Positions 21,351 through 54,948 are shown, counted from the first letter of the stretch. The stretch is 64,000 nucleotides of DNA from Acidobacteriota bacterium (GCA_045862895.1 BTUO01000007.1:169020-233019); one strand, 5' to 3'. The notes: generated by a model not told the origin, from the letters alone. Numbers and translations are program-made.

Positions 21351-21357
21351 CTTCCGG

Positions 21358-21964: not shown

Positions 21965-21994
21965 TTGACGGGCGGTGCGGCCGCCGCCTAATGT
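21965..21994 (+). promoter_or_regulatory. sigma70-type promoter of fkpA
   Basis: TTGACG-N18-TAATGT, then SD AAGGAGG before ATG 22026. Confidence 0.6.
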
Positions 21995-22025
21995 CTCCGC
22001 CTCGCGAACCGAAGGAGGAAACCCC

Positions 22026-22778
22026 ATGCGCTTGTCCGTCGTGCTCGCTTCGATGATTCTCGCCGCCTCGGCGGCGTTCGCCCAGGAACCGCCCGCTCCG
22101 CCGGCGCCGGTCACGCTCAGTGCCGAGGAGGAGCGCGAGGTGCTCTCGACGCTCGGTGCGATGCTCTGGAAGAACCTCCAGACTTTCGATCTGACGGCCG
22201 AGGAGCTCGCGATCGTCCAGCAGGGTCTGTCCGCCGCCGCCGCCGGCACCGCGCCGGAGCCCGACCTCGCCACGATGTCGCCCAGGATCGACGCCTTCCG
22301 CCGCGCCCGCGTCGAGAAGCGGGCGGCCATCGAGAAGGAGCGCGGTCGCGCCTACGTCGACGAGCAGGCGGCGCGCCCCGGCGCGGTGCGCACCGAGTCG
22401 GGCATGGTCTACCTCGAGACCGCCGCCGGCAGCGGCGACGCCCCGACGGCCGAGGACACCGTCAAGGTCCACTATCGCGGCACGCTGGTCGACGGCACCG
22501 AGTTCGACAGCTCCTACAAGCGCGAGCAGCCGGCCGAGTTTCCGCTGGGCCGGGTGATCAAGTGCTGGACCGAGGGGCTGCAGAAGATGAAGCCGGGCGG
22601 CAAGGCGACACTGGTCTGCCCGTCCGACATCGCCTACGGCGACCGCGGCCGCCCGTCGATCCCGGCCGGCGCGACGCTGGTCTTCGAGGTCGAGCTGCTC
22701 GAGGTGAAGAAGAAGCCGGTGGTGACCGGTCCGGTGCCGGTTCCCGCGCCCGCGGCCGAATCCAAGCCGGCCGGCTGA
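22026..22778 (+). CDS. fkpA: FKBP-type peptidyl-prolyl isomerase (FkpA/Mip-like)
   Basis: Signal peptide, FKBP_N helix, VKVHYRGTLVDGTEFDSSY, VIKCWTEGLQKM, AYG, LVFEVELL. Confidence 0.92.
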   Translation: MRLSVVLASMILAASAAFAQEPPAPPAPVTLSAEEEREVLSTLGAMLWKNLQTFDLTAEELAIVQQGLSAAAAGTAPEPDLATMSPRIDAFRRARVEKRAAIEKERGRAYVDEQAARPGAVRTESGMVYLETAAGSGDAPTAEDTVKVHYRGTLVDGTEFDSSYKREQPAEFPLGRVIKCWTEGLQKMKPGGKATLVCPSDIAYGDRGRPSIPAGATLVFEVELLEVKKKPVVTGPVPVPAPAAESKPAG

Positions 22779-22794
22779 CCGGCGCCGAGCTTCG

Positions 22795-24342: not shown

Positions 24343-24419
24343 ACGGCGGCTTCGCGGAAGCGCAGCGGCCACCGCAGTAGGATGTGCGGCACGCGCCCGT
24401 TCTCGATGGCGATGCCGCG

Positions 24420-28109: not shown

Positions 28110-28262
28110 TCGGCGGTCGGCGATCGCTGAGGAGGGATCACGGCCCTCGGATCGGGAGGTGCGTACAATGAGCAGAGTCCGGTCCGGGAGGGGCGCCGCC
28201 GACTCTACCTGCCAGGAGACTCGAGCCGCGTCCGGGGTCCTGGAGCCGGGGAGGCAAGCACC

Positions 28263-30218
28263 ATGGGTATCGCAGGGCCCCGTTTCGTCCTCGCGCTCTG
28301 TCTCATCGCCGCCACTTCCGTCCGGGCCCAGCCCGGCGCCTGCGCGCCCGAGCTGCTGGCCACCGACCGCCGTGGCTCGCCATCGTCGATCTCCCGCCAG
28401 GGCGACGTCCTCTACCTCGGCGCCGGCGCCGCGGTGGTGGTAGTCGACACGACAGATCTTGCGGCGCCGCTCGAGCGGGGCCGGGTCGACCTCGACGAGA
28501 TGGTTCTAGACGTCGCTCACTGGCAGTCCACCGTGGTCGCCCTCGGCCAGCATGGCCTCACGTTCGTCGACGCCAGTGATTCCGAGCACCCCACCGTCAC
28601 CGGTTCCTTCCCATTCCCGGCGGCCTGGATCGTTCGCTCGATCGCGGCGCGCGAGTCGCATGCGTTCGTTCCGGAGGTAAACGGGCTGCGCATCGTGAGC
28701 TTCGTCGATCCGACTGCGCCGGCCGAGGTTGGCTTCTTCCCAGCGGTCTCGACGCGCGACGTCGCCGTGAGCGGTCAGCGGGCCTACCTGCTGAGCGCGG
28801 GGATTCTGCGCGTGGTCAACGTCTCGAATCCCGCGAGTCCCTACCAGGTCGCGTCGTTGCCGGTGGACATTGGCAATGACGACCGGCTGAGCATCGCCGG
28901 CAGCGGCAATCGCCTCGCGGCGTGGGGCAGATGGTCGGATGGCCATTTCACAGGCTCGGCGGCCGAGCTCTTCAGCCTCGCCGATCCAGCGCTGCCGGTG
29001 AAACGAAGCTCCCTCGTCTACGATGACTACGGCTTCGAGTCGCTGGCTTTCGCGTTCGATCGCGTCTACTTCGGAGGGATCATCTACGACGTCGCGTCGC
29101 TCGCGAATCCCGTCGAGGTCGGGACCCTGCTCCCGCTGTTCTGGCCCGTCGACATGGCGATCGCGCCTGATCCCGACCGGCTCTTCGTCGCCGCAGCGGA
29201 TGGGGGGCTCCACGTCGCGGAGATTTCAAGCCCAGGCAACCCGAGTATCGAGGCCAGCATCTACATGCCGAGCGACGCGACAGACGGCTATCTCGCCGGA
29301 ACCATGGCGGTCCTCGTGCGGGAAGACGCGCTCGAGGTCTTCGATCTTTCCGATCCGGCTCACCCCGCTCGGCTGAGCAGCCTCCCAGCCGGCGCGGCCC
29401 AATTCGAGGAGGTCGAGCGGGTCCGCGACCACGCTTACGTCAGATCCGCGCACGACTTGAAGATCGTCGATCTCTCGAATCCCCTCGAGCCGGTCCAGAC
29501 GGGAAGCGTGGGCTACTCCGTCTGGAACGCCCCGGCGTTCGCCGGGGGCGTCGTCGGGTTCGTGGACGATTGTGCGGCGGTCGTTCGCCTGCTCGACGCC
29601 AGCCAACCCGGCGCTCCGCAGTTCTTGAGCGAGATCCCGCTCGATGAGAACTGCTACAAGACCGACTTCGCCATGACTGCGGAGCGCCTCTACGTCTGGG
29701 ACTACGACGGATTCGACGGCGACAGCCGGCTCCGAACCTTCGACCTCTCCGACCCCGCCCAACCGCTCGAGATCGGCGCGGCCGCAGTCGACCCCTGGCA
29801 CTGGTCCCGGAGCGCGGTGCGGGGCCGCTACCTTCTCCTCACCGACGAAGATCGTTTCGGCGTGCTCGATCTGGCTGCGCCCGCGAATCCCATTCCGGCA
29901 GCGAACCTGTCGCTTCCCGGCGGCCACTGGTTCCTGCGCAAGTTGACCGTGTACGGGGGAGTCGCGCTGGTGGCACCGCACTCCTACTCGACGGGCTCGG
30001 ACGACCGGCTCGTGGTCGTCGACGTCTCGAATCCCCCGGCCTCCGCGGTGATCGCCGAGATTGATCCCGCGGGTCGCGGCAACGCGGCTTTCGCGGGTCC
30101 CGGCCTGATCATGGTCGCCGACGGGCCGGCGGGCTATTCGATCTACTCCTCGTGCGTCCCGTTCGCCGACGGCTTCGAGAGCGGCGACGCGTCGGAGTGG
30201 AGTCTCGCCGGCCGGTGA
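28263..30218 (+). CDS. secreted LVIVD-repeat beta-propeller protein with FADGFESG tail (paralog A)
   Basis: Signal peptide. About 13 [VIL]xD[VL]SxPxxP repeats. Ends CVPFADGFESGDASEWSLAGR. 651 aa. Confidence 0.88.
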   Translation: MGIAGPRFVLALCLIAATSVRAQPGACAPELLATDRRGSPSSISRQGDVLYLGAGAAVVVVDTTDLAAPLERGRVDLDEMVLDVAHWQSTVVALGQHGLTFVDASDSEHPTVTGSFPFPAAWIVRSIAARESHAFVPEVNGLRIVSFVDPTAPAEVGFFPAVSTRDVAVSGQRAYLLSAGILRVVNVSNPASPYQVASLPVDIGNDDRLSIAGSGNRLAAWGRWSDGHFTGSAAELFSLADPALPVKRSSLVYDDYGFESLAFAFDRVYFGGIIYDVASLANPVEVGTLLPLFWPVDMAIAPDPDRLFVAAADGGLHVAEISSPGNPSIEASIYMPSDATDGYLAGTMAVLVREDALEVFDLSDPAHPARLSSLPAGAAQFEEVERVRDHAYVRSAHDLKIVDLSNPLEPVQTGSVGYSVWNAPAFAGGVVGFVDDCAAVVRLLDASQPGAPQFLSEIPLDENCYKTDFAMTAERLYVWDYDGFDGDSRLRTFDLSDPAQPLEIGAAAVDPWHWSRSAVRGRYLLLTDEDRFGVLDLAAPANPIPAANLSLPGGHWFLRKLTVYGGVALVAPHSYSTGSDDRLVVVDVSNPPASAVIAEIDPAGRGNAAFAGPGLIMVADGPAGYSIYSSCVPFADGFESGDASEWSLAGR

Positions 30219-41295: not shown

Positions 41296-42552
41296 TCAGC
41301 TTCCGAATCGGTCGGGCCGGAAGGGCGCCGGATCGAAGCTCGGCGCCGCGCCCGACATCAGCTCGGCGAGCAGCCGTCCGGTGGCGGGCGCGGTCTTCAA
41401 GCCGGTCATCTGGTGACCGGTCGCGAGCCAGAGATTCTCGGCCGCCGGCGACCGCCCGATCGCCGGCAGGCCGTCGGGCAGCGTCGGGCGCAGTCCGCGC
41501 CAGACCTCGGTCGGCGCGAGCGGCTCGGCGAGGCCGAGCGCGGCGCGCGCGCCGGCGGCGATCGCGGCCACCCGGCTCTCGGTGATCGAGAAGTCGAGGT
41601 CGACCAGCTCGAGGGTGCCGGACAGACGCAGGCGCTCGTCGTGCGGCGTCACCGCGATCTTGCGGTCGGCGAGCTGGTACGCCCGGCGCGGCATGCGCTC
41701 GATCGGCGGCACCAGCAGCGTGTAGCCCTTGGCGCCGAGCATCGGCAGGCGCACGCCGAGCTCGGCCGCGAGCCGGCCCGACCAGGCGCCGGCGGCGATC
41801 ACCACCTCGTCCGCGCGGAAGACACCGCGCGTCGTCTCGAGCTCGGCGACGCGCGAACCCGAGCGCCGGAACTTCCACGCCTCGGCCCCTTCGACGAAGT
41901 GGACCCCGTGCCGGCTCGCCTCCGCAGCGAGCGCCGCGACCGCGAGCGCCGGCTCGCAGTGCCCTTCGTTCGAGTAGAAGTACGCCCCCGCCACCGGCCC
42001 GGCGAGGGCGGGCTCGCGCTCGCGCACCTCGTCGGCCGTCCAGGTCTCGACGACGACGCCGAAGCGGGAGACCAGATCCGCCTTCGAACGGCCGGCGGCG
42101 AAGCTCGCCGGCGACTCGAAGACCTGCAGCAGGCCGGTGTCCCGGAAGCCGAACGAATCCGGTCCGCGGCGCGCGAGCTCGGCCCAGAAATCGACGCTCG
42201 AACGCGAGAGGGAGACCAGCGCCTCGGTGCCGCGCTCGAAGCGGCGGCGCGAGGTGGCCGCCAGGAAGCCGGCCAGCCAGCGCGCGAGGTCGAGACTCCA
42301 GCGCGGCTCGATGTAGAGCGGGCTCGAGGAATCGAACAGCCAGAGCAGCGCCTTGGGGAAGAGCCCGGGCGCCGGCAGCGGCAGCGAGACCGACGGCGTC
42401 AGGAGCCCGGCGTTGCCGGAGGAGCACGCCGCTCCGACCCGGTCGCGCTCGAGCACCGTGACCTCCGCCCCCCGCCGCGCCAGCTCGAGCGCGCAGGCGA
42501 TGCCCACCACGCCGCCACCGACCACCACCACGTCCCGCCCCTCGCTCGCCAC
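41296..42552 (-). CDS. D-amino acid dehydrogenase-like FAD oxidoreductase (DadA/DAO family)
   Basis: VVGGGVVG, CSSGNAG, GAKGY, WRGLRPTLPDGLPAIG, ATGHQMTG. 418 aa. Confidence 0.9.
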   Translation of the reverse strand: MASEGRDVVVVGGGVVGIACALELARRGAEVTVLERDRVGAACSSGNAGLLTPSVSLPLPAPGLFPKALLWLFDSSSPLYIEPRWSLDLARWLAGFLAATSRRRFERGTEALVSLSRSSVDFWAELARRGPDSFGFRDTGLLQVFESPASFAAGRSKADLVSRFGVVVETWTADEVREREPALAGPVAGAYFYSNEGHCEPALAVAALAAEASRHGVHFVEGAEAWKFRRSGSRVAELETTRGVFRADEVVIAAGAWSGRLAAELGVRLPMLGAKGYTLLVPPIERMPRRAYQLADRKIAVTPHDERLRLSGTLELVDLDFSITESRVAAIAAGARAALGLAEPLAPTEVWRGLRPTLPDGLPAIGRSPAAENLWLATGHQMTGLKTAPATGRLLAELMSGAAPSFDPAPFRPDRFGS

Positions 42553-42694
42553 GTCGCACCCCCGCCAGCAAGCCTAGCTTCCGCCTCGGCTTCGACTCCT
42601 GCCCCCGCGGGTAGTCGTGTTCCGCCGGCCCTTGTCAGCTCGGGCGCGGAGGTCCAGAATGACCGGACCGGTCGCCCCTGCCGAGGAGACTCTC

Positions 42695-44665
42695 GTGCCG
42701 AAACTCAGCTTCGCCTGCGCTCTCGCCCTCCTGCTCGGATCCGCCGCGCTCGAAGCGCAGACCTGCGTCCCCCACCTGCTCGGCGCCGACCGCCGCGGAC
42801 CGGCCCAGTCGATCTCGCGGACCGGCTCGACGCTCTACGTCGGCACCGGCGCGGCGCTGCTCGTCGTCGACGTCACCGACCGCGCGAACCCGGTCGAGCG
42901 CGGCTACGTCAATCTGGACGGTATCGTCCGCGACGTCGCCGCCGCCGGCTCGATCGCGGTGGTGCTCGCGGATTCCGGCCTCTTCTTCGTCGACGCTACC
43001 GATCCGGAGGAACCGATGCTCGCGGGCTGGTGGCCGATTCCTGCGCTCTGGTACGTGCGCCACATCGACGCTCGCGGCACGCTCGTCTACCTTCCGGCCG
43101 CCGACGGCCTCCATATCGTCGATTTCACGGATCCGGCGGGCGCCGCTCAGGTCGGCTTCCTCGCTACGCTCGACTCCCGCGACGTCGTGACCCGGAGCCC
43201 GACCCGCGCCTACATCGTCGGCAACGGTTCGCTCCACGCCATCGACATCTCGATTCCCTCGGCACCCACGGTCGTCTCGTCGACCGCCCTCCCCAACGGC
43301 GCCGATGCGGCACTGGCCATCGGTCCCAATGGCGGCCGCCTGGCGGCCTGGCGCAACTACTCTTCTCACCACCCGTGGAGCGACGTCGCGCTCTTCGATC
43401 TCTCCGACGCAGATCAACCGGTCTTTCGATGGGGAACTTCGGGTGAACCGATCTCAGCGCTGACGATCGCAGGCGACCGCGCCTATATCGGGAGCTCGAT
43501 CTACCGCATCTCGAATCCGGCGCAGCCGACTTGGCTCGGTGAGCTTGGAGTCGACGCTCCGAGCAGTCATGCGCCCACCGGCAACCCGGATCTGCTCTAT
43601 GTCGCGGACTCGACCCGGGGAGTCGCGACGATGAACGTCTCCGACGGCGGCTCCGTCGTCGAGGTCGACCTCGTCGCACTGCCGACCGAGACGATCGACG
43701 GCTACGTCGCTGGAGGATCCGCGGTGATCCTGGAACGGAGTGGACTGCGCGTCGCGAACCTGAACGCTCCGGACTTGCTCGAGCCGGTCGGAGACCTCCG
43801 ATTGCCCCAGACCTGGCTCTCGAACATCACGCGGATCTCGACTCACGCCGTCGTCGTCGGGTACTTCGACGACGGACCCAACGTGATGCGTCTCGTCGAC
43901 TTGGCGAATCCGGCCGAGCCGACACTCGGCGTGACGCTGCCCACTCTCGCCGAACGACCTCCGGTCGTCGATCAGAACCTGCTCCTGGCCATGTCCAGAT
44001 GCTCGGGTAGCCGTTCCGTCGCCATCTACGATGTCTCGGAACCTGCGCTGCCGATTCTCGTTACGGAGCTCGAGACCGAATCGGAGTGTCTGTACCCCGA
44101 CCTCGCTGCCGACGGCGACCGACTCTACGTCTGGCGTGAAGTCGATCCCTATCCGATCGGACACTACGTTTTCACAGTGTTCGACATCTCGGTGCCCGAT
44201 GCCCCGGTCGAGCTCGCGAGATCGAGCACCGAGAACCATTGGGGCTCCAGCGTCGCCCGCGGACACAGGCTGGTGCTCACCGAGGACGAGCGGCTCGACG
44301 TGCTCGATCTCGCCGACCCTGCGACGCCCGTCCTCCGCGGTTCGGTGCCTCTGCGAGAATCACGCGGGGTCTCCACCGAGCAGGTCCGCCTGTACGGCAG
44401 CCGCGCCGGGCTTCCGCGACGCGGTCGCGACGCGAACGGCAATCGGGACGATCGTCCGAGCCTCGTCGATATCTCCGATCCTGCGGCACCCTTCGAGTGG
44501 GCGGCGCTCGACACGCCCGGCACCGGCGACAGCATCTTCTTCGGACCCGGAGTCGTCGTCGTGGCCGACGGCGCGGCCGGAATCTCGATCTTCGAGTCCT
44601 GCGTTCCCTTCGCCGACGGCTTCGAGTCGGGCGATACGTCGGAGTGGAGCCTGCTCGAACCGTAG
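42695..44665 (+). CDS. secreted LVIVD-repeat beta-propeller protein with FADGFESG tail (paralog B)
   Basis: GTG start with GAGGAG SD; TTGTCA-N17-CAGAAT upstream. Signal peptide, about 13 LVIVD-like repeats. Ends CVPFADGFESGDTSEWSLLEP. Confidence 0.88.
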   Translation: MPKLSFACALALLLGSAALEAQTCVPHLLGADRRGPAQSISRTGSTLYVGTGAALLVVDVTDRANPVERGYVNLDGIVRDVAAAGSIAVVLADSGLFFVDATDPEEPMLAGWWPIPALWYVRHIDARGTLVYLPAADGLHIVDFTDPAGAAQVGFLATLDSRDVVTRSPTRAYIVGNGSLHAIDISIPSAPTVVSSTALPNGADAALAIGPNGGRLAAWRNYSSHHPWSDVALFDLSDADQPVFRWGTSGEPISALTIAGDRAYIGSSIYRISNPAQPTWLGELGVDAPSSHAPTGNPDLLYVADSTRGVATMNVSDGGSVVEVDLVALPTETIDGYVAGGSAVILERSGLRVANLNAPDLLEPVGDLRLPQTWLSNITRISTHAVVVGYFDDGPNVMRLVDLANPAEPTLGVTLPTLAERPPVVDQNLLLAMSRCSGSRSVAIYDVSEPALPILVTELETESECLYPDLAADGDRLYVWREVDPYPIGHYVFTVFDISVPDAPVELARSSTENHWGSSVARGHRLVLTEDERLDVLDLADPATPVLRGSVPLRESRGVSTEQVRLYGSRAGLPRRGRDANGNRDDRPSLVDISDPAAPFEWAALDTPGTGDSIFFGPGVVVVADGAAGISIFESCVPFADGFESGDTSEWSLLEP

Positions 44666-44675
44666 CCGTTCTTCG

Positions 44676-46307
44676 TCAGAAGTCGAACGCCTCCCACGCG
44701 GCGGTGTCGCCGCTCTCGAAGCCGTCGCCGAAGAGGGCGTCGCGCTCGAAGGCGCCGAGGTCGAGGCCGGTGCCCGCGACGCGCGGGGCGTGGTCGGCGT
44801 CGTAGGCGCCGACCGAGTCGAAGGTCGCGTCGCCGGCGTCGAGCGCCTGCGAGCTCGCCTGCAGATGGAAGTCGCCGGCGCCGGAGGCTTCGAACAGCGG
44901 ATCCGGATCGCCCAGCTCGCCGATCCAGTTGTGCTGGGCGACGCGGTCGAATTCTGGGTCGCCGAGGAGGACCTGGACGTCGTTCGCGGGGCCCGGCCCG
45001 TTGCTCCAGAGGATCGAGTTCTCGAGACGGAGCTCGGCGTCCGTGGACTCCGAGAGCTCGACGCCGACGCCCGCGTGCCCGACCACGGTCAGGTTGCCGG
45101 CGACCAGCGTGCTGCCGGCACCGGATGCCGAGAGGCGGATCCCCTTCGGCGGACCGCCGACCGAGAGCAGGTCGGAGGCGATCAGGGTCGAGCCGTTCGA
45201 GGCCGACAGCAGGCCGACCAACTGCGCGTCGTCGACCCGCGAGAAGCCGTAGGAACGGACGCGGCGGAGGACCAGCGGCGCGGCACCGGTCGATCCGACC
45301 TCGAGCTCGCGGGGCGTGTGGCTCTGCGCCGGGCCGAACAGAGCATCGCCGCCGAGCCGCAGATCCTCGAGCACGACGGATCCGGCCGCGCCGACGCTCG
45401 AGGAGAGGCTGAATCCCGCCGCGCTCACGACGCCGGTCGCTTCGACACCGTTGCCGTCGAGTAGCAGCCGCCGCCCTTCGAATCGCACGGAGTCCGAAAG
45501 CGAGATCCGCATGGCTCCGCCGATCGCGATCGATCCGGGCAACGCCGAGTCCGCCTGGTTGTCGAGAAACGAGACGTTCGACAGGCCGACCACGGTGTTC
45601 TCCTGGGCGATGAGGTCGAGCCCGCCGCCCGCGCACGAGATCCCGACCCCGGGATCGAGCGCGGTCGCGAGATTGTCGAGGAACAGCGTGTCCTCGATCG
45701 AGATCGTCTGACCGGTGCCGCTGTTGAAGATCGAGACCGCGCCGCCGTTGACCGCGCTCGAACCGGTCAGGACCACGTCGCGCAGCGCGAGGCTGGCGCT
45801 CTCGACCCGGATCGCGCCGCCGTGAGCGGGGCTCTCGGCGTGTGCCGAGCCGCCGACGAGGCCGACGTTGCGGACCGCGAGCCGGGCGCCCGCCGTGACC
45901 CGGACGAAACGGTTGGCGCCGAGCAGGTGGATCTCGGCGAAGCCGGCGGCGGGCGCGCCGCGCACGGTGAGATCGATCGCCGCTCCCGTGAGCGTCTCCT
46001 GGCCCTGGTCGAACGCGAAGGGTCCCTCGACCGCGAGCACGATCTCGTCGACCGCGCCGCCGGCGGCGCATTCGTTGACCGCCAGGTCGGTCGCCGCCGC
46101 GCGGATCGCCTCGCGCAGCGAACAGACGCCGTCGACCGCGACCGCGTCCGCGATCGACGTGATCGACCAGCCGGTGGCGTGCGCCGGCGACGCCCCGCCG
46201 AGCAAGGCGACGAGCGCGAGGCCGGCGGACGCCGGCGCGAGAACGCCGGCCGCGGCGAGCGGGTGGATCCGCGAGGACGGCGCGGTACGGACGGACGTGG
46301 ACGACAT
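44676..46307 (-). CDS. secreted CSLREA-domain / beta-helix protein with choice-of-anchor-Q-like segment and FGDGFESG tail
   Basis: DGVCSLREAIRAA, GGAI repeats, GDFHLQASSQALDAG...DLGAFE, tail LFGDGFESGDTAAWEAFDF. Start at 46307 (SD GGAGG) or 46325. Confidence 0.88.
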   Translation of the reverse strand: MSSTSVRTAPSSRIHPLAAAGVLAPASAGLALVALLGGASPAHATGWSITSIADAVAVDGVCSLREAIRAAATDLAVNECAAGGAVDEIVLAVEGPFAFDQGQETLTGAAIDLTVRGAPAAGFAEIHLLGANRFVRVTAGARLAVRNVGLVGGSAHAESPAHGGAIRVESASLALRDVVLTGSSAVNGGAVSIFNSGTGQTISIEDTLFLDNLATALDPGVGISCAGGGLDLIAQENTVVGLSNVSFLDNQADSALPGSIAIGGAMRISLSDSVRFEGRRLLLDGNGVEATGVVSAAGFSLSSSVGAAGSVVLEDLRLGGDALFGPAQSHTPRELEVGSTGAAPLVLRRVRSYGFSRVDDAQLVGLLSASNGSTLIASDLLSVGGPPKGIRLSASGAGSTLVAGNLTVVGHAGVGVELSESTDAELRLENSILWSNGPGPANDVQVLLGDPEFDRVAQHNWIGELGDPDPLFEASGAGDFHLQASSQALDAGDATFDSVGAYDADHAPRVAGTGLDLGAFERDALFGDGFESGDTAAWEAFDF

Positions 46308-46336
46308 CGGACCTCCCGGGAGCATGGTCTCCCTCG

Positions 46337-46366
46337 CTACGCGGGAGGTACGTCGGCGGGGGGACA
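46337..46366 (-). promoter_or_regulatory. candidate ECF-sigma promoter for the CSLREA gene
   Basis: TGTCCC-N17-CGCGTAG on the minus strand. Same architecture as 48108-48137. Confidence 0.5.
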
Positions 46367-46467
46367 GCGCGAGGGGCGGCGGCGGAGGGAGCCCGACCTG
46401 TCCGCGCCGTCGTCCCCGGCGACGACGCGGTCGCGCCCGCCACCGGGGAACGACGTCGGTGACCCGA

Positions 46468-48102
46468 TCAGAAGGCGCCGGCCGACCAGCGCGACGCGAA
46501 GCCGTTCTCGAAACCGTCGCCGAACAGCGAGCCGCGCAGCACGATCTCGGCGCCGGTTCTGGGAGCCTCGCCGGGCACCTGCTCGTCGGGCGCTCCGATC
46601 ACCAGATCGGCGTGACCGTCGCCGTCGAAGTCGCCCGCGGCGAGCGCCCAGCCGAACATCGAGGACTGGTTGAGCGCTCCGGGCAGCCCGCCGACGCCCT
46701 CGAGCACCGTCAGCCGGCGCGAGGTCGTGAGACGCGACGGCGACCCCATCATCGCCGAGACCTGTCCGGCCTCGGCCACCGGCGTGTCCTCGCGTGGCGT
46801 GCCGACCACGAGATCGTCGTAGCCGTCGGCGTCGAAGTCGGCGGCGACCAGGCTGAAGCCGAACAGGTCGTCGGACTCGTCGTGACCGGGGCCGACGAAG
46901 TTGCCCTGCTCCCAGTACTGGGTGCGCGACAGGTCGAAGCGGAAGGGCGAGCCGTAGATCGTGAAGGCGGCGCCGGCGTTGACCAGGACGTTGTTCAGGC
47001 CGAGGTCCTCGAACGGCGCGCCGATCGCCAGATCGTCGTGGCCGTCGCCGTCGAAGTCGCCGGCGGCGAGCTCGAAGCCGAAGGTGTCACCGCTCTCGCT
47101 CAGCCCCCCGATGCTGGTCTCCCACCAGAGGACGTTCTCCGCAAACAGCAGCCCCCACTGGCTGCCGAAGACGACCTGGATCGCCCCTTCGCCGTCCTCG
47201 CCGGGCACGCCGATCGCGAGGTCGTCGTAGCCGTTGGCGTCGAAATCGCCGGTCGCCAGCCCCTCGCCGAAGCGGTCCCCGGGATCGCGCGTGCCGAGCA
47301 GCCCCAGCAGCCCCTGGTACATGTCGTATCCGAGGTAGGGCATCAGGCCACCGACGCCGCCGTGCAGGACGACGACGCTGCCGGCGTCCTCGAAGCCCGA
47401 GCCGGAGACGTAATCGTAGGGGACGCCGACCGCGAGATCGTCGAAGCCGTCGCCGTCGAAGTCGCCGACGGCCAGCGCGCTGCCGAAGCGGTCGAAAGCC
47501 TCCGGAGTGCCGGGAATGTCGAGAGCGGCCTGGCGAAGGAAGTGCTCGCCGACAGTCTGGATCCCCTCCGGCAGCCCGTAGTGGATCGAGACGCCGCCGG
47601 CGTGCTGGGCGCCGGTGTTGTTGCGGGGAACGCCGACGGCGAGGTCGTCGCGACCGTCGCCGTTGAAGTCGCCCGCCGCGAGGCTCAGCCCGAAGACGTC
47701 CTCCGGCTGCGCGGGGTCGGGGCTGCCGACGAACTGCTGGCTGAGCACCGTCGACGCCAACCCGCCAGCCAGCCCCGAGCCGGGTACGCCGAAGCGGACG
47801 ACGACGATGCCGCAGTCGATGCAGCCGCTGCCGACGATGCCGTTGTGGCCGGGGATGCCGGTGGCGAGATCGGCCGCGCCGTCGCCGTTGAAGTCGCCAG
47901 TGGCGAGCGCGAAGCCGAACTGGTCGCCGTGCTCGGGGACGAAGAACAGCAGGTCCTCGTCGCCGAACCACTCGGAGCCGACCGCGGAGAGCCCCACCGC
48001 GAGCGGCTGCCCGGCGGCCGCAGCGGGGGAGGAGAGGGAAGCCAGAGCGGCGATGGCGCCGCCCAGGAGCAGAGGTGCGGAGAGTCGGATGTCGGTTCTC
48101 AT
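46468..48102 (-). CDS. secreted FG-GAP (integrin-alpha-like) 7-repeat propeller protein with FGDGFENG tail
   Basis: Seven FGxxLAxGDFDGDGxDDLAVGxP repeats and a signal peptide. Tail LFGDGFENGFASRWSAGAF. Confidence 0.92.
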   Translation of the reverse strand: MRTDIRLSAPLLLGGAIAALASLSSPAAAAGQPLAVGLSAVGSEWFGDEDLLFFVPEHGDQFGFALATGDFNGDGAADLATGIPGHNGIVGSGCIDCGIVVVRFGVPGSGLAGGLASTVLSQQFVGSPDPAQPEDVFGLSLAAGDFNGDGRDDLAVGVPRNNTGAQHAGGVSIHYGLPEGIQTVGEHFLRQAALDIPGTPEAFDRFGSALAVGDFDGDGFDDLAVGVPYDYVSGSGFEDAGSVVVLHGGVGGLMPYLGYDMYQGLLGLLGTRDPGDRFGEGLATGDFDANGYDDLAIGVPGEDGEGAIQVVFGSQWGLLFAENVLWWETSIGGLSESGDTFGFELAAGDFDGDGHDDLAIGAPFEDLGLNNVLVNAGAAFTIYGSPFRFDLSRTQYWEQGNFVGPGHDESDDLFGFSLVAADFDADGYDDLVVGTPREDTPVAEAGQVSAMMGSPSRLTTSRRLTVLEGVGGLPGALNQSSMFGWALAAGDFDGDGHADLVIGAPDEQVPGEAPRTGAEIVLRGSLFGDGFENGFASRWSAGAF

Positions 48103-48107
48103 GACCA

Positions 48108-48137
48108 CTACGCGCGACGCGCCGACGCCGCGGCTCA
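48108..48137 (-). promoter_or_regulatory. candidate ECF-sigma promoter for the FG-GAP gene (leaderless)
   Basis: TGAGCC-N17-CGCGTAG on the minus strand, ending 5 nt before ATG 48102. Confidence 0.5.
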
Positions 48138-48191
48138 CGGCGTGACCGGCGCCGCGGCGGGCGCGGTCGGCCGGGGGTACACTCGCCGGAC

Positions 48192-48764
48192 ATGTCCCCC
48201 CGGAAAGGGCCGGCCGAGGACGTCACCACCCTGCTGCGCGCCTGGCGCGCCGGCGACGCCGGCGCGCGCGACCTGCTGCTCGAGCGCGTCTACGCCGACC
48301 TCAAGCGGATCGCGGCGGCGCAGATGCGGGGCGAGCGGGTCGGGCACACGCTCGAGCCGACCGCGCTGGTGCACGAGAGCTTCCTGCGCCTGATCGGTCA
48401 GGCCGCGGTCGACTGGCGCGACCGCGCGCACTTCTTCGGACTCGCCGCGGCGATGATGCGCCGCGTCCTGGTCGACCACGCCCGCCGCCGCCTCGCGCGC
48501 AAACGTCGCTCCGACGAACCGCCGCCGATGCTCACCGTCGCCGCTCCGGGGCGGGCGGCGGTCGAGCTGCTCGACCTCGACCGCGCCCTCGAGAAGCTCG
48601 CGAGCGAATCGCCGCGGCCGGCCAAGGTCGTCGAGATGCGCTACTTCGGCGGGCTCGAGATCGAGGAGGTGGCCGCCTGCCTCGAGGTCTCACCGGCCAC
48701 GGTCAAGCGCGACTGGGACTACGCCCGCGCGTGGATCGGCGCCGAGCTGCGTCCCGCGCCGTGA
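48192..48764 (+). CDS. ECF sigma factor, TIGR02999/ECF43 type (kinase-associated)
   Basis: VTTLLRAWRAGD, HTLEPTALVHESFLRL, MRRVLVDHAR, VVEMRYFGGL, TVKRDW. No anti-sigma; overlaps a kinase gene. Confidence 0.93.
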   Translation: MSPRKGPAEDVTTLLRAWRAGDAGARDLLLERVYADLKRIAAAQMRGERVGHTLEPTALVHESFLRLIGQAAVDWRDRAHFFGLAAAMMRRVLVDHARRRLARKRRSDEPPPMLTVAAPGRAAVELLDLDRALEKLASESPRPAKVVEMRYFGGLEIEEVAACLEVSPATVKRDWDYARAWIGAELRPAP

Positions 48765-51463
48765 GTCGCGAGACGCTGCGCGACCTGTTCGAGCGCGCCC
48801 GCGGCCTCGCGGCCGGCGAGCGCGAGCGGCTCCTCGCCGAGGTCGAGCAGGGCGGACATCCGCATGCCGCCGAGCTGCGCCGCCTGCTCGCCGCCGCGGA
48901 GGCCCCCGCTTCCCCGCTCGACGCGGACCCCTTCGGCGTGCTCGAGGACGAGGTCCCGCCGACGCGCATCGGCCCGTTCCGGATCCTCTCCGAGCTCGGA
49001 CGCGGTGGCATGGGCCGCGTCTACCTCGCCGAGCAGACCGGGGACGGCTTCCGGCGCCAGGTCGCGCTCAAGGTCATCGCCAGAGGCGCCCGCGCCGACA
49101 TCGAGCGCCGCGCGCGCGACGAGCAGCGGATCCTCGCCGCGCTCGAGCACCCGGGCATCGCCCGCTTCTACGACGCCGGCCGGACCGCCGACGGCGACTG
49201 GTACCTGGCGCTCGAGTACGTCGAGGGCAGCGACCTGCTCGACCACGTCCGCGCGCAGGCGCTGCCGCTCGCCGACCGGCTCCGCCTGCTGCGCGACGTC
49301 GCCGAGGCGGTCGCCTACGCCCACGCGCGCGGCGTGGTCCATCGCGACCTGAAGCCGGGCAACATCCTGGTTTCGGCCGACGGCCGGCCGCGCCTGCTCG
49401 ACTTCGGCATCGCCAAGCTGGTCGAGCCCGGCCCCGAGCCGGGTCCGAGCGTGACGCGCACCGGGTTCCGCGCGATGACGCCGGCCTACGCGAGCCCCGA
49501 GCAGTTCCGCGGCGAGCCGGTGACGATCGCCTCCGACGTCTTCTCGCTCGGCGTCGTGCTCTACGAGCTGGTGGCGGGTGTGCGACCCTTCGCCCCCCGC
49601 GCCCTCTCGGCGAGCGAGGTCGAGCGCGCGGTCCTCGCCGGCGACCCCGAGCTGCCTTCGACCGTCGCGCGCCGCACCACCACGATCGAGTCGGTCGATC
49701 GCCCGGCGACCGCCGGCCACCGCCGCCGCTGGACGGCCGGGATGCGCCGCGATCTCGACGCCATCTGTCTCAAGGCGCTCGCCAAACGCCCTGCGGATCG
49801 CTACCCGTCGGCGGCCGAGCTCGCCGCCGACCTCTCGGCGCTGCTCGACGGGCGACCGGTGGCGGCGCGTGGCAGCGGCGGGCTCTACCGCCTCTCCCGG
49901 CTCGTCCGGCGCCACCGTGCCGAGCTGACCGCCGCGACGGCGATCGCGGTCGCGATCGGCGCGCTCCTGTTCGCCCTGGCGCCGCGCTCCGGCGGGCGAG
50001 CCGCGAGCGGCACACCGGTCGCGCGCGCGCCGTTCTCCACGCGCGCGGCCGACGCGCTGTCGCTCGACGAGCTGCGGCGGCGATTCGCCGCCGCGCCGGG
50101 CGACGCCGTCGCCGGTGCCCTGCTGGCGACCGCGCTCGCCAGTCGCGGCGAAGGTTCGGAGGCCGCGATCGTGGTCGGGCGGCTGCGCCAGCTCCCCGCG
50201 GCGGCGGACGACCCGATCGTCGACTACGCGGAAGCCGTCGTCGCGACCCACCTCGACGAGCCCCAGCGGGCGCTCGCGCTGTTCGATCGCGCGCTCGGGC
50301 GCGCGGCCGAGGCCGGGCGCCCGGAGCTCATCGCCCGCCTCCGCCTGGGTCGCGCGCGATCGCACTCCGACCTCGGCCAGACCGCCGAGGCGATCCGCGA
50401 CCTCGAGGAGTCGATCGCGGAGGCGCGACGCACGGGCGAGGACTCGACGCTCGCGGTCGCGCTCAACGATCTGGCGGTCGAGCGCTTGATGGCGGGCGAC
50501 TGGTCCGAGGGCGAGCGCCTCCTGGTCGACGCGCTCGAGGCCGCCCGCGCGGTCGACGACCGGCCGCGCATCGGCCTGATCCTGCAGAACCTCGGCGGCC
50601 TGGCTTTCCAGCGCGGCCGGCCCGACCTCGCCGAGGAACGGCTGCGCGAAGCGATCGTGGCCCACGACGCGCTCGGCCGCGAGCGCCACGCCGCGACCAC
50701 CCGCGCCGACCTGTCGCAGGCGGTGCGCGACCAGGGGCGCGCCGGTGAGGCCGAGGGACTGCTCGGGGACGCGGTCTCGGTGTTGCGGCGGATCGGGCAC
50801 GAGACTTCGCTCGCCTACGCGCTCGCGGCGCTCGGCGAGGTCGCCGTCGCCCGCCTCGATCCGGACCAGGCCGAGCGTCTCGCCGCGGAGATCGAAGCGG
50901 GAGCGCGGACCAGCGGCAATCCATCGAGCCTCGGCCTCGCCGAGCGGTTGCGGGCGCTGGCCGCCGCGTCGAAGGGGGACCTCGAATCCGCGCGCGGCCG
51001 ATTCGAGCGCTCGCGCCGCCTGTTCGTCGACAGCGGCAACCTCGACCTCGCCGCCGAAACCGCCGTCGCCCACGCCACCGAAGAGCTCGACGCGGGCCAT
51101 CTCGATCGCGCCGCGGCACTGCTCGAACCCGGCGCTCCGGACTTCGTGGCGGCCCCCGCCGACGGCAACGCCGCGTTCGTCGCCGCGACCCTGCGCGCCC
51201 GGATCGCCGCCGCCTCGGGTCGCGTGGCGGAGGGGAACCGGCAGCTCGAGCCGCTCGGCGACGGCGCGAGCGCGCCGAGCCTCGCGCGACGGATCCACTA
51301 CCGGCGCGCGCGCGCCGCCCTGGCGACGGCGGCGGGGCGCACCGCCGACGCGCGGGCCGATCTCGATGCCGCGCGCTCCGACGCGCTCGCCCTCGACCAC
51401 CGCCGCCTCGCCGCGCGTCTCGAGGCCGACCTCGCGACGGGACGGGTGCGAGGACGGCCCTGA
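48761..51463 (+). CDS. membrane Ser/Thr protein kinase with extracytoplasmic TPR domain, cognate to the ECF sigma
   Basis: GTG overlaps the sigma stop (GTGA). LGRGGMGRVY, VALK, HRDLKPGN, DFG, TPAYASPEQ, TM, TPRs. Confidence 0.92.
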   Translation: MSRETLRDLFERARGLAAGERERLLAEVEQGGHPHAAELRRLLAAAEAPASPLDADPFGVLEDEVPPTRIGPFRILSELGRGGMGRVYLAEQTGDGFRRQVALKVIARGARADIERRARDEQRILAALEHPGIARFYDAGRTADGDWYLALEYVEGSDLLDHVRAQALPLADRLRLLRDVAEAVAYAHARGVVHRDLKPGNILVSADGRPRLLDFGIAKLVEPGPEPGPSVTRTGFRAMTPAYASPEQFRGEPVTIASDVFSLGVVLYELVAGVRPFAPRALSASEVERAVLAGDPELPSTVARRTTTIESVDRPATAGHRRRWTAGMRRDLDAICLKALAKRPADRYPSAAELAADLSALLDGRPVAARGSGGLYRLSRLVRRHRAELTAATAIAVAIGALLFALAPRSGGRAASGTPVARAPFSTRAADALSLDELRRRFAAAPGDAVAGALLATALASRGEGSEAAIVVGRLRQLPAAADDPIVDYAEAVVATHLDEPQRALALFDRALGRAAEAGRPELIARLRLGRARSHSDLGQTAEAIRDLEESIAEARRTGEDSTLAVALNDLAVERLMAGDWSEGERLLVDALEAARAVDDRPRIGLILQNLGGLAFQRGRPDLAEERLREAIVAHDALGRERHAATTRADLSQAVRDQGRAGEAEGLLGDAVSVLRRIGHETSLAYALAALGEVAVARLDPDQAERLAAEIEAGARTSGNPSSLGLAERLRALAAASKGDLESARGRFERSRRLFVDSGNLDLAAETAVAHATEELDAGHLDRAAALLEPGAPDFVAAPADGNAAFVAATLRARIAAASGRVAEGNRQLEPLGDGASAPSLARRIHYRRARAALATAAGRTADARADLDAARSDALALDHRRLAARLEADLATGRVRGRP

Positions 51464-51520
51464 TAGGATCAGAATCGCTGCGGCGGCTCCGGTCGCCCCG
51501 GCTCCCCTGAGACCGAGACC

Positions 51521-53110
51521 ATGAACTCCCTCGCGGCCGAGGCCGCCCGCCGGCGCACGTTCGCCATCATCAGCCACCCGGACGCGGGCAAGACGACGCT
51601 GACCGAAAAGCTCCTGCTGTTCGGCGGCGCCATCCAGCTCGCCGGCGCGGTCAAGGCCCGCGGCGACGCCCGCCGCGCGCGTTCCGACTGGATGAAGGTC
51701 GAGCAGGAGCGCGGCATCTCGGTCACCGCCTCGGTGATGACCTTCGAGTGGGGCGACTGCGTCTTCAACCTGCTCGACACTCCGGGGCACCAGGACTTCT
51801 CCGAGGACACCTACCGGACGCTCACCGCGGTCGATTCCGCGGTGATGGTGATCGACGCCGCCAAGGGCATCGAGACCCAGACCCGCAAGCTGTTCGAGGT
51901 CTGCCGCCTGCGCGACGTGCCGATCGTCACCTTCGTCAACAAGCTCGACCGCGAGGGACGCGATCCGTTCGAGCTGATGGACGAGATCGAGCAGGACCTC
52001 CAGCTCCACGTCACGCCGGCCAACTGGCCGATCGGGATGGGTGCGTCGTTCCGCGGCTGCTACGACCTGCTCGCCGACCGCCTGCTGCTGTTCGATCGCG
52101 GCCAGGGCGCGCGCCGGCCCGATCCGATCGCCTTCCACGGCCTCTCGGACCCCGCGCTCGAGAGCCACCTGCCGCACGGCGCGGTCGAGAAGCTGCGCGA
52201 GGACGCCCACCTCGCCTCCTCGCTGTGCCCGGCCTTCGACCTCGAGGTCTACCGCGAGGGGCACCTGACGCCGGTCTTCTTCGGCTCGGCGCTCCACAAC
52301 TTCGGCGTGCGCGAGCTGATCGAGGCGATCGCCGCGCACGCGCCGTCGCCGCGCCCGCAGAAGACCGCCGAGCGGACGATCGAGCCGACCGAGGAGAAGG
52401 TCGCCGCGTTCGTCTTCAAGATCCAGGCGAACATGGATCCCAAGCACCGCGACCGGATCGCCTTCACCCGCATCTGCTCGGGGCGCTTCGAGCGCGGCCA
52501 ACGCCTGTTCCACCCGCGCTCGGGCAAGTGGATCAACGTCCACACGCCGGTGATGTTCCTCGCCCGCGAGCGCGAGATCGCCGAGGAGGCTTACCCCGGC
52601 GACATCGTCGGCATCCCGAACCACGGCCAGCTCCGGATCGGCGACGCCCTGACCGAGGGCGAGACGCTGCACATCCTCGGCATTCCGTCGTTCGCGCCCG
52701 AGCTGCTGCAGAAGGTGCGCGCCACCGATCCGCTCAAGGCCAAGCACCTCGGCAAGGCGCTCACCCACCTCGCCGAGGAGGGGGCCGCGCAGGTGTTCAA
52801 GACCCGGATCGGCGGCGAGTGGATCGTCGGTGTGGCCGGCGCGCTCCAGTTCGACGTGCTCGCCGACCGCATCCGCACCGAGTACGATCTCTCGGTCGAG
52901 TTCCAGTCGACGACGCTCCACACCGCGCGCTGGCTCGAGGCCGAGGACGCGCGCGAGCTCAAGCGCTTCCTCGAGGCCCACCAGGGCGCGCTCGCCGACG
53001 ACTGGTCCGGATCGCCGGTCTTCCTCGCGGCCAATCCCTACCGGCTGAAGGTCGCCGAGGAGGACTGGCCCAAGGTACGCTTCCTCAAGACCCGCGAGCA
53101 GGCGGCCTGA
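51521..53110 (+). CDS. prfC: peptide chain release factor 3
   Basis: RRTFAIISHPDAGKTTLTEKLLL, DWMKVEQERGISV, DTPGHQDFSEDTYR, NKLD, FKIQANMDPKHRDR. Confidence 0.98.
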   Translation: MNSLAAEAARRRTFAIISHPDAGKTTLTEKLLLFGGAIQLAGAVKARGDARRARSDWMKVEQERGISVTASVMTFEWGDCVFNLLDTPGHQDFSEDTYRTLTAVDSAVMVIDAAKGIETQTRKLFEVCRLRDVPIVTFVNKLDREGRDPFELMDEIEQDLQLHVTPANWPIGMGASFRGCYDLLADRLLLFDRGQGARRPDPIAFHGLSDPALESHLPHGAVEKLREDAHLASSLCPAFDLEVYREGHLTPVFFGSALHNFGVRELIEAIAAHAPSPRPQKTAERTIEPTEEKVAAFVFKIQANMDPKHRDRIAFTRICSGRFERGQRLFHPRSGKWINVHTPVMFLAREREIAEEAYPGDIVGIPNHGQLRIGDALTEGETLHILGIPSFAPELLQKVRATDPLKAKHLGKALTHLAEEGAAQVFKTRIGGEWIVGVAGALQFDVLADRIRTEYDLSVEFQSTTLHTARWLEAEDARELKRFLEAHQGALADDWSGSPVFLAANPYRLKVAEEDWPKVRFLKTREQAA

Positions 53111-53136
53111 ATCCGCCGCGCGGCCGAGGCGCGAGC

Positions 53137-54948
53137 GTGACGAACCCCGAGCCGACCCCTCCGACGTCCCCGCGCCGCCGCTGGCTCGCGACCGCTGCGC
53201 TGTTCGCGCTCTGGCTCGCCGTGGCGCTGGCGGCGACCGCGCTCGCGCGCCGCCAGCTCGATCCGCCCGGCACCGGCATCGACGACGCCAACATCTTCTT
53301 CCGCTACGCGCGCAACCTGGCCCACGGACACGGGCTGGTCTGGAACCCCGGCGGCGAGCGGGTCGAAGGCTTCTCCTCGCCGGCCTGGGTGCTGCTGCTC
53401 GCCGCGGCCGTGCCGCTCGGCGTGCCGATCGAAGCCTGGGCGCGCACGCTTGCCGCGCTCGCCCTGGCCGCCGGGCTCACCGCCTGGTCGCGGCGGCTGC
53501 TCGACGACGCGGGCTCAGGAGGCCGCGCCGCGACCGCGCTCACGCTCGCCGCCGCGGTCGCCTGGATCGCGGCGAATCCGGCGCTGCTGGTCTGGGGGAT
53601 CGCCACCGGCATGGACACCGGCCTGTGGATCGCCGCCGTCCTCGGCGCGGCCGCGGCCGTCGCGCGCTGGGCGAGCGCGGGGCACGGCGCACGCGCCGCC
53701 GCCGTCCTGCTCGCGCTGCTCCCGTTCGTGCGCGTCGAGGGGATCGCGGTCGGCGTCGCGCTGCTGGTCTCCGGGCTCTGGCTCGCGCCCGACGGCGTCG
53801 CACGCTACCTGCGCCGCGCCGCGCCGCTCGCCGGGGCGGCGCTCGGGAGTTTCGTCGTGCTGACGCTGGCGCGGCTCGCCTGGTTCGGCGTTCCGTTGCC
53901 CAACACCTTTTACGCGAAGGTCGAGCTCGATCCGGCCGAGCGGCTCGATCTCACCGCGCGCTACTTCGGCCGCACCGCGCACGACCACCCGCTGCTGCTC
54001 GTGATCCTCGCGGTCGCCGTCGTGGTCGCCGTCGCGGGGGTACGCCGGCTCACCGGCCGGACGCGCCGCGGCGACGCGGCGAGCGGGGCGGCGCTCGTCC
54101 ACCTGTGCGGACCGGCGCTGGTGTTCGCCGCGGCCGGCGCCGATCACTTCCCCGGCAGCCGCTTCCTGCTGCCGTTCTGGCCCGCGGCGCTCGCGATGCT
54201 GCTCGCGCTGCCGCTGCCGGAGGCCGGCAGGCTCGGGCGCAGGGCCGGGGCGGCACTGCGCCCGACCCTGGCGCTCGCCGTCGCCGCTCTCGTCTATGCC
54301 GGCAACGTCGCCTCCTGGTCGCTGCTCGACGCGTTGCCGCTGCTGCGCAACGAGTTCCGACTCGCCGCCGAGGGGCGCAGCGCCGGCCTCTGGCTCAATC
54401 GCCTCTTCCCCGATCCGGACGCCCGGCCCCTGGTCGCCATCGGCCAGGCCGGCGGCCTCCCCTACACCTTCGAGGGGACCTCCTTCGACGTCTGGGGGCT
54501 CAACGACACCGAGGTCGCCCACGACGCGACGCCGCGCGAGGGGCCGCCCGGCCACTCAGCGTTCTCGCGGGGCGTCTTCTTCCGGCGCAACCCGGAACTG
54601 CTCGTCACCGCCTTCTGGTGCCGCGGCGACGCCGCGGCCGACTTCCGCGAGCAGACGATCTTCGCCAGCTACTTCGACGATCTCGGCAAGGATCGGCGCC
54701 TCTGGCGCCGCTACCGCCCGGTGCGGCTCGCCGGCGACCCGATCCCGGAAGGGCACGAGCTGTGCGCCTGGGTCCGCCGCGACTTCCTGCCGCGCTGCGC
54801 GGCGTGCGTCGAACGGGAGCGGCCGTGGGCTCGGCCCGAGTCCGAGCGCCGGCGTCAGATCGAGCCGGAGGCTCCGCGCGCCGAGGGCGCCGCCACGACC
54901 GAGTCGCCCGGCGGCGACGAGGCGAGCGGCCAGCCCTCCCAGGGCTGA
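53137..54948 (+). CDS. GT-C membrane glycosyltransferase (AftA/arabinofuranosyltransferase-like DDAxI family)
   Basis: GIDDANIFFRYARNLAHGHGLVWNPGGERVEGFSSP, GMDT, VRVEG, PNTFYAK, DVWGLND. Confidence 0.8.
   Translation: MTNPEPTPPTSPRRRWLATAALFALWLAVALAATALARRQLDPPGTGIDDANIFFRYARNLAHGHGLVWNPGGERVEGFSSPAWVLLLAAAVPLGVPIEAWARTLAALALAAGLTAWSRRLLDDAGSGGRAATALTLAAAVAWIAANPALLVWGIATGMDTGLWIAAVLGAAAAVARWASAGHGARAAAVLLALLPFVRVEGIAVGVALLVSGLWLAPDGVARYLRRAAPLAGAALGSFVVLTLARLAWFGVPLPNTFYAKVELDPAERLDLTARYFGRTAHDHPLLLVILAVAVVVAVAGVRRLTGRTRRGDAASGAALVHLCGPALVFAAAGADHFPGSRFLLPFWPAALAMLLALPLPEAGRLGRRAGAALRPTLALAVAALVYAGNVASWSLLDALPLLRNEFRLAAEGRSAGLWLNRLFPDPDARPLVAIGQAGGLPYTFEGTSFDVWGLNDTEVAHDATPREGPPGHSAFSRGVFFRRNPELLVTAFWCRGDAAADFREQTIFASYFDDLGKDRRLWRRYRPVRLAGDPIPEGHELCAWVRRDFLPRCAACVERERPWARPESERRRQIEPEAPRAEGAATTESPGGDEASGQPSQG

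Follow-up and report, generated by a model that had tools for sequence, protein, structure and literature searches.

We analysed a 64,000-nucleotide (nt) stretch of DNA from an Acidobacteriota bacterium (GCA_045862895.1 BTUO01000007.1:169020-233019; in what follows, the window) and describe in it a locus of three genes: one for an extracytoplasmic function (ECF) sigma factor, one for a transmembrane (TM) Hanks-type Ser/Thr kinase that overlaps it, and, divergent from both, one for an exported protein with FG-GAP repeats. We consider it reasonably probable that the sigma factor is an ECF43-like factor activated by phosphorylation and that the divergent FG-GAP gene is its target, a conserved and probably direct one. 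It appears that a three-gene signalling unit has been multiplied in the Thermoanaerobaculia and that this locus is one copy of it. The features on which this reading is built are as follows:

46468-48102, minus strand: FG-GAP protein, exported, 544 amino acids (PF01839)
48105-48137, minus strand: bipartite promoter-like motif of the FG-GAP gene
48178-48183, plus strand: TACACT, a TAnnnT (sigma-70-type -10) box, 8 nt upstream of the sigma ATG
48192-48764, plus strand: ECF sigma factor, 190 amino acids (TIGR02999/PF07638)
48761-51463, plus strand: Hanks-type Ser/Thr kinase, 900 amino acids counted from GTG 48761
51521-53110, plus strand: prfC

The sigma factor and its co-encoded kinase

The sigma factor scores 211.2 bits against TIGR02999 (cut-off 126.15) and 188.7 bits against PF07638 (cut-off 21.1), two families that we take to correspond to group ECF43. 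In region 2.2 the acidic DAED motif is replaced by E55-P56-T57-A58, with the Thr in third position; the stretch HTLEPTALVHE, to which an earlier reading of the same DNA (the sequence-only reading) had drawn attention, is present, and Thr57 is encoded by nt 48360-48362. Aligned with 80 relatives from public genomes, the window sigma and its relatives have Thr in this column in 80 cases and Ser in one, within a local motif Q/E-[P/T/A]-T-A that in some relatives is exactly QTTA. This is the position of interest in ECF43 sigma factors: two reports describe the replacement of DAED by STTA in EcfP or by the consensus QTTA, and the phosphorylation of the second Thr of that motif (T63 of EcfP, T51 of EcfK) by the co-encoded kinase (PMC8999054, PMC13147305). 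Thr57 was mapped to these residues by the motif and not by direct alignment.

The reading frame of the kinase is open from 48731, and its GTG at 48761 overlaps the sigma stop codon as GTGA, so that with either start the two genes overlap. Profile searches gave 150 bits for Pkinase and 54.6 bits for TPR_12. The catalytic motifs are intact (GRGGMG at residue 80, VALK at 101, HRD at 194, DFG at 214 and SPE at 245) and are preceded by an N-terminal extension of about 75 residues. A single TM helix (residues 387-410, nt 49919-49990) is followed by a TPR region of about 490 residues (nt 49991-51460), and because the kinase has this one helix, we infer that the TPR region lies outside the cytoplasm, in the periplasm. 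The coupling of the sigma gene at 48192 to a TM Ser/Thr kinase with TPRs was therefore correctly recognized before, and so was the lack of an anti-sigma gene: profile searches found no anti-sigma domain in the neighbouring genes, which are those for the FG-GAP protein, the kinase and prfC. The kinase gene follows the sigma gene in most relatives. A PDB sequence search with the sigma factor gave no match. The order of sigma and kinase, the lack of an anti-sigma gene, the replaced acidic motif, the near-invariant Thr and the TM kinase with TPRs all agree with the likeness to ECF43 pairs that the sequence-only reading had seen, and by these sequence criteria we assign the pair to the ECF43 phospho-switch class as a putative new member.

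How might the pair itself be expressed? The TACACT box in front of the sigma gene has counterparts in most of the upstream regions examined, across clades (L001-L045), where a TAnnnT lies 7-9 nt upstream of the sigma start; at most of these starts there is no Shine-Dalgarno sequence. Owing to this spacing and to the missing Shine-Dalgarno sequence, the mRNAs of sigma and kinase may be leaderless, and the TACACT box suggests a leaderless promoter of the housekeeping type for the operon. A generic sigma-70 scan of 44500-51700 found no full promoter. The sigma genes carry the TAnnnT box only and not the bipartite motif found at the FG-GAP genes, which would fit a constitutively expressed sigma factor that is activated after translation.

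The FG-GAP gene and its promoter-like motif

The window has a G+C content of 73%; its nearest relatives are metagenome-assembled Thermoanaerobaculia (Acidobacteriota), and a search of sequencing runs found the same DNA in sludge and bioreactor metagenomes. Is the neighbourhood of the FG-GAP gene and the sigma-kinase pair common in these bacteria? We examined 80 sigma loci, 45 of which, all of the Thermoanaerobaculia type, have a sigma factor at least 58% identical to that of the window. One to three FG-GAP genes adjoin the sigma-kinase pair in 32 of these 45 loci, and at least 6 of the remaining 13 are short, incomplete contigs. No FG-GAP gene was found beside sigma relatives of less than 55% identity, which come from other classes, nor in the 0.98 Mb of 79 control loci, which surround homologues of the second TPR kinase of the window. 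The trio stays together in four arrangements, each associated with one sigma subclade: the FG-GAP gene is divergent from sigma and kinase, as in the window; an FG-GAP array lies between sigma and kinase; the FG-GAP gene is convergent, 3' of the kinase; or it lies 3' of the kinase on the same strand. Individual genomes carry four or five such units. In the two closest orthologous loci (L001 and L280) the order FG-GAP, sigma, kinase, prfC is kept, and the FG-GAP proteins are 77% and 79% identical, respectively, to that of the window. Thus the link between the FG-GAP gene and the sigma-kinase pair, which the sequence-only reading had proposed, is real and conserved.

Tandem arrays of two or three FG-GAP paralogues were seen in L022 (10625-15800), L027 (11600-15800) and L017 (300-5400). 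Every copy has its own promoter-like motif in L022 and L027, and these two arrays show a recent local duplication of promoter-plus-gene units; in L017 only one copy of the motif was detected.

In the window, the distance from the FG-GAP ATG at 48102 to the sigma ATG is exactly 89 bp, head-to-head. The spacing given by the sequence-only reading is thus exact for this start; an alternative start proposed by a lister of open reading frames (ORFs), GTG 48138, would reduce the gap to 53 bp, and this GTG lies inside the promoter-like box. The motif consists of TGAGCC (48137-48132), a 17-nt spacer and CGCGTAGT (48114-48107), followed by GGTC and the ATG. In its general form it reads (A/G)TGAGCC-N17-CGCGTAGT(G/C), with the ATG 3-4 nt later in most loci. 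It occurs once in the window (48137-48107, minus strand; 0.05 expected) and more than 25 loci have it, equally spaced, upstream of their FG-GAP genes. Scored with a position weight matrix (PWM) trained on the other loci only, the window site reaches 21.9 and ranks first among 127,936 positions. Throughout the 1.3 Mb of sigma loci all hits above 20 are FG-GAP starts, including those of the tandem-array copies, and the maximum in shuffled sequence is 16.8; among 1.95 million control positions the maximum is 17.1, and none reaches the score of the window site. The two boxes, the fixed spacer and a CGTA about 7 nt before the ATG match the layout expected of an ECF promoter that would yield a leaderless mRNA. 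Most of the other FG-GAP genes also look leaderless.

Another explanation of the motif would be that it is not the promoter of this sigma factor, either coding for a 12-residue N-terminal extension (MSR....RVV.) or serving as the operator of another regulator, and that the linkage of the genes has another cause. Indeed, ATG, GTG or TTG followed by AGCC stands in frame with the ATG 36 nt downstream, the ORF lister and some gene callers start at the box, and the translated instances of the motif resemble each other. Against this, the codons that the box would contain are atypical of this genome: GTA, a rare codon, is invariant, TTA, GTT and GCA occur too, and the G+C content at third codon positions (GC3) is 0.71, compared with 0.91 for the FG-GAP gene. 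The first base of the box varies among orthologues between A, G, T and C (L280 has CTGAGCC), and in L017 the box is out of frame with the gene. In the sigma clade with LEATG in region 2.2, and in L034 and L039, the element is placed 25-60 nt (40-60 nt in one clade) upstream of both a Shine-Dalgarno sequence and an ATG; a box well upstream of both, as found in clade D and in L034 and L039, does not suit a coding role, and the two boxes with their fixed 17-nt spacer and their distance to the ATG fit an ECF promoter. We regard this explanation as very improbable, and the codon usage and GC3, the variable first base, the frame in L017 and the placement in the LEATG clade, L034 and L039 argue that the motif acts at the level of DNA rather than by coding. 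The ATGAGCC box as a real start codon was ruled out by the codon usage and by the variants in other loci. In the LEATG clade both boxes are changed, to TG[GT]CCC-N17-CGCGCAGT, so that sigma clade and motif variant covary.

Several points weigh against a phospho-activated sigma factor with the adjacent FG-GAP gene as its target. The sigma factor retains one acidic residue, E55, at the first position of the motif. EcfK also relies on sites in its linker and, with T51A as its only change, remains functional (PMC13147305); Thr57 may therefore not be the sole or decisive site. The AAC that many ECF promoters typically have is missing from the -35 box, TGAGCC, and our literature searches retrieved no promoter consensus of the ECF43 class with which to compare this box. 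In seven of the 45 evaluable loci no FG-GAP gene lies within reach. The boxes are nearly identical across the paralogous units of one genome, so that a sigma factor encoded elsewhere could read a given FG-GAP gene; cross-talk between paralogous units is possible. Finally, an FG-GAP orthologue (71%) in L281 has no adjacent sigma or kinase gene and still has the motif, which suggests that the element can be read, or can persist, in trans. There, at 7990-8040, the sequence is GTGAGCC-N17-CGCGTAGTG-agc-ATG, and the FG-GAP gene lies behind an ABC-transporter operon. A further, fairly good copy of the motif (score 18.4), in L013 at 2700-2745, stands between the FG-GAP gene and a SAM-methyltransferase-like gene that follows; it may mark an extra target or be a match by chance.

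The mechanism that we infer for phospho-activation of the sigma factor and expression of the FG-GAP gene, including the signal, the kinase topology, the phosphorylation, the match of sigma and motif and the leaderless starts, would run as follows. Sigma factor and kinase would be made together from the housekeeping-type leaderless promoter and from overlapping frames (GTGA). With EPTA in place of the region 2.2 acidic patch, by which the polymerase is gripped, the free sigma factor would probably be weak or inactive. The membrane kinase would sense an extracytoplasmic signal via its large TPR domain and phosphorylate the sigma factor, likely at Thr57 and possibly also at sites in the linker rich in Ser, Thr and acidic residues (RKRRSDEPPPMLT), and the added negative charge would restore polymerase binding. 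The active holoenzyme would then initiate transcription at TGAGCC-N17-CGCGTAGT, some 7 nt in front of the divergent gene's ATG, and the product would be an FG-GAP propeller of seven blades that is exported, binds Ca and carries a flexible C-terminal tag. Metagenome runs labelled as RNA yielded contigs only, with flat depth and no ends or direction. In two of them ('METAGENOMIC RNA-Seq', X12 and X13, considered for window 42000-53500) about 80% of the words sampled from window 46400-49400 are present, with a depth that is even over genes and spacers; these runs are probably DNA or uninformative for expression.

The C-terminal tail and the neighbouring genes

The FG-GAP protein has a Sec-type signal peptide, seven repeats (PF01839, 226.7 bits) and Ca-binding loops. 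An AlphaFold2 model based on 42 homologues is a seven-bladed propeller with a mean predicted local distance difference test score (pLDDT) of 88 and a predicted template modelling score of 0.88. The pLDDT exceeds 90 over residues ~45-525, which form repeated four-strand units, and falls below 50 at the signal peptide and over the last 13 residues (532-544). The closest solved structures are integrin alpha propellers (E ~1e-14). Because of the low pLDDT of these last residues, the C-terminal tail would be a flexible appendage and not part of the fold. It reads LFGDGFENGFASRWSAGAF (nt 46471-46527) and follows the pattern LF[GA]DGFE[SN]G....W plus five residues and the stop codon (in short, FxDGFExGxxxxW). 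Four genes of the window carry it: the FG-GAP gene, the adjacent gene for a protein with a CSLREA motif (tail at 44679-44735), an LVIVD-repeat gene at 42617-44665 (tail at 44609-44662) and a paralogue of the latter at 28131-30218 (tail at 30162-30215).

The pattern was scanned against 185,579 species genomes, and the counts given here are from the matches listed. Among these, 89 of 133 motif matches end no more than 9 residues from a stop codon, which places the tail beyond chance; the usual terminal form is [ILV]F.DGFE[ST]GD.S.WS..VP-stop. The tail is carried by a wide variety of large ORFs, most of them from Thermoanaerobaculia, Holophagae and other Acidobacteriota (loci L081-L200). The ~20-residue tail had no match in Pfam or NCBIfam even at E values up to 10, and no hydrophobic segment or basic cluster was found in it. 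We therefore rejected an assignment to the known sorting signals (PEP-CTERM, GlyGly-CTERM, LPXTG and the type IX secretion system (T9SS) C-terminal domain, which measures about 80 residues), for want of a model match and of a hydrophobic helix such as marks exosortase- or rhombosortase-type signals. Literature searches with the motif strings returned irrelevant matches only, and no processing enzyme for the tail was identified. The tail is thus a candidate for an undescribed sorting or recognition signal. One could object that it is too common for adjacency to mean anything; this was ruled out, since the control loci hold about one tail-bearing ORF in 0.98 Mb. In several Chloroflexia and archaeal proteins (L090, L095, L117, L129, L156) FxDGFExGxxxxW is internal and non-terminal, and a PF14099 (Polysacc_lyase, ConA-like) domain, often in tandem, has it as its opening strand. 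The tail may have originated from that strand.

Besides or instead of being an output, the FG-GAP protein could be a part of the sensor: much as in FecA-FecR-FecI signalling at the cell surface, or in the sensing of outer-membrane-protein C-termini by DegS, the protein or its free tail would bind the periplasmic TPR region and set the activity of the kinase. We speculate on this with considerable doubt. The linkage of the trio survives four rearrangements and many duplications, as is typical of physically interacting proteins; TPR domains often bind extended or C-terminal peptides; and a flexible, exposed tail is predicted. Tail sequences also differ between sigma/kinase clades, a pattern that common descent alone explains as well. 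Moreover, the same tail is found on many proteins with no kinase nearby, and the FG-GAP gene in L281 has no kinase. A still bolder idea, to which we give little credence, is a closed loop in which FxDGFExGxxxxWSxxxP would serve in Acidobacteriota as a tag, so far undescribed, for export or sorting. The periplasmic TPR region would recognize this tag on its own FG-GAP partner when the tag is free, for example because the protein is undelivered, released or cleaved. Each duplicated unit would then monitor one surface propeller and adjust its synthesis via phosphorylation of the sigma factor. If true, this would be a phosphorylation-based counterpart of the C-terminus sensing of DegS/sigma-E.

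On the other side of the FG-GAP gene lie the following features:

46408-46456, minus strand: GC-rich hairpin, stem of about 20 bp, without a U tract, directly 3' of the FG-GAP stop codon
44676-46325, minus strand: CSLREA / choice-of-anchor Q protein, exported, tail-bearing, 549 amino acids (profile search)
42617/42659-44665, plus strand: LVIVD-repeat protein, exported, tail-bearing; probable start ATG 42659, after GGAGG

All three exported proteins, LVIVD, CSLREA and FG-GAP, have signal peptides. The CSLREA gene contains the literal CSLREA motif, with a TIGR04214 score of 22.6 just below the cut-off of 25, and matches choice-of-anchor Q (NF041518) with 26.9, just above its cut-off of 25; a PDB sequence search with the protein gave no match. 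As the sequence-only reading had described, this gene follows the FG-GAP gene, 142 nt downstream, and both carry the tail.

Does the sigma factor then switch on tail-bearing surface proteins as a class, with FG-GAP, CSLREA and perhaps LVIVD as members and the tail as the mark of the regulon? Three consecutive tail genes adjoin the sigma-kinase pair, and tail genes are otherwise sparse, with one per 0.98 Mb of control loci. The CSLREA gene lies on the same strand as the FG-GAP gene, and no canonical terminator was found in the 142-nt spacer between them, which as a whole folds no better than shuffled sequences (z -0.66); a scan of 44500-51700 gave two terminator-like sites, both intragenic. Read-through from FG-GAP into CSLREA would thus be possible. 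The long hairpin after the FG-GAP gene may, however, be a terminator. A weak variant box, CTGTCCC-N17-CGCGTAGC, is found at 46336, 10 nt before the ATG of the CSLREA gene. Its PWM score is 5.5 (rank 12 of 127,936), compared with 21.9 for the FG-GAP site; a score of 5.5 is reached at 268 control positions, and for a region of 150 nt it corresponds to a p of roughly 0.02.

Conservation speaks against this wider regulon. None of the 80 sigma loci contains a homologue of CSLREA or LVIVD, and both genes lie within the ~22 kb between the Aldedh and FG-GAP genes (window 24343-46467) that are absent from L001 and L280. In these two loci only a short spacer or a SIMPL gene separates the FG-GAP gene from Aldedh-FKBP-(GNAT)-MltA, and in the window the Aldedh, FKBP and MltA genes lie at 20034-24342. 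The 22 kb contain two Ser/Thr kinases (24381-28109, with TPRs, and from about 36352 onward), the two LVIVD-tail genes and the CSLREA gene, together with a PMT_2-like glycosyltransferase, an outer-membrane-channel-like gene and a D-amino-acid dehydrogenase-like gene. This looks like a variable island rich in exported or tagged proteins and kinases. The second LVIVD-tail gene stands behind the kinase at 24381-28109, which has no sigma factor; this pairing, considered as a second kinase/tail unit, was ruled out as not conserved, since the 79 loci around homologues of that kinase contain no LVIVD gene and one tail-bearing ORF.

With no homologue in the sigma loci, its absence from L001 and L280 and its weak motif, CSLREA does not hold as a member of the module, and we consider it improbable that the tail defines a regulon. 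CSLREA and LVIVD are better described, as their distribution indicates, as neighbours that share a tag and not as conserved outputs. The earlier proposal of tagged surface proteins as the output was overstated: the conserved output would be the single FG-GAP family, whose surface location and adhesin function are putative, and neither conservation nor the motif supports the tail-bearing class, including CSLREA.

Significance and comparison with known systems

The type of switch is already known, and its conserved output here would be the FG-GAP protein. The literature that we searched contains no report of a conserved third partner, of an expansion of the trio in one class or of the unmodelled tag, nor of the predicted promoter, its clade-specific variant or the leaderless layout. 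Few ECF sigma factors that are activated by phosphorylation have an output that is known, namely type VI secretion (the T6SS) in the case of EcfK and resistance to polymyxin in that of EcfP. For an entire uncultured clade, the locus and its relatives predict the controlled gene, an exported FG-GAP propeller, and the promoter, TGAGCC-N17-CGCGTAGT with a leaderless start, with sigma clade and promoter variant changing together; these predictions allow a direct test of the system in vitro or in a heterologous host. The expansion of the trio suggests a family of sensing circuits, parallel to each other, at the envelope or surface of bacteria known from activated-sludge metagenomes. The tail, as a widespread unmodelled tag on diverse exported proteins of Acidobacteriota, is worth a separate study.

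Like PEP-CTERM, GlyGly-CTERM and the T9SS C-terminal domain, the tail is a short conserved C-terminal module on unrelated exported proteins, and by NCBIfam naming CSLREA and choice-of-anchor Q domains usually accompany such C-terminal tags. It differs from them in its length of only about 20 residues, in having neither a hydrophobic helix nor a basic cluster, and in matching no model of Pfam or NCBIfam. The FecI/FecR/FecA system offers an analogy only: there, too, a sigma factor, a membrane transducer and an exported protein are co-encoded, an ECF promoter stands on the gene of the exported protein, and there are many paralogues. In contrast, profile searches of the window locus found neither a FecR-type anti-sigma factor nor a TonB-dependent transducer, and phosphorylation would take the place of proteolysis or release.

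The closest counterparts are the ECF43 pairs. EcfP/PknT of Vibrio parahaemolyticus follows the same proposed logic, in that the sigma factor is described as intrinsically inactive owing to the replacement of DAED by STTA, compared with EPTA here (PMC8999054). EcfP responds to polymyxin and controls a resistance regulon, and unlike EcfP the window sigma is acidic at the first position of the motif. The window sigma is about 48-52% identical to relatives from Xanthomonadales (L068, L070, L080). EcfK/PknS of Xanthomonas citri, also ECF43, shares with the window locus a sigma gene followed by that of a TM Hanks kinase with periplasmic TPRs, the lack of an anti-sigma factor, a conserved Thr in place of part of the sigma-2.2 acidic motif and a linker rich in Ser, Thr and acidic residues; the N-terminal extension of the kinase measures 83 residues in PknS and about 75 here (PMC13147305). 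PknS has three TPR repeats, whereas the TPR region of the window kinase spans about 490 residues. The output of EcfK is T6SS genes, and that of the window locus, as predicted from its sequence, is an FG-GAP propeller gene, in a unit that, in contrast to EcfK/PknS, is multiplied within single genomes.

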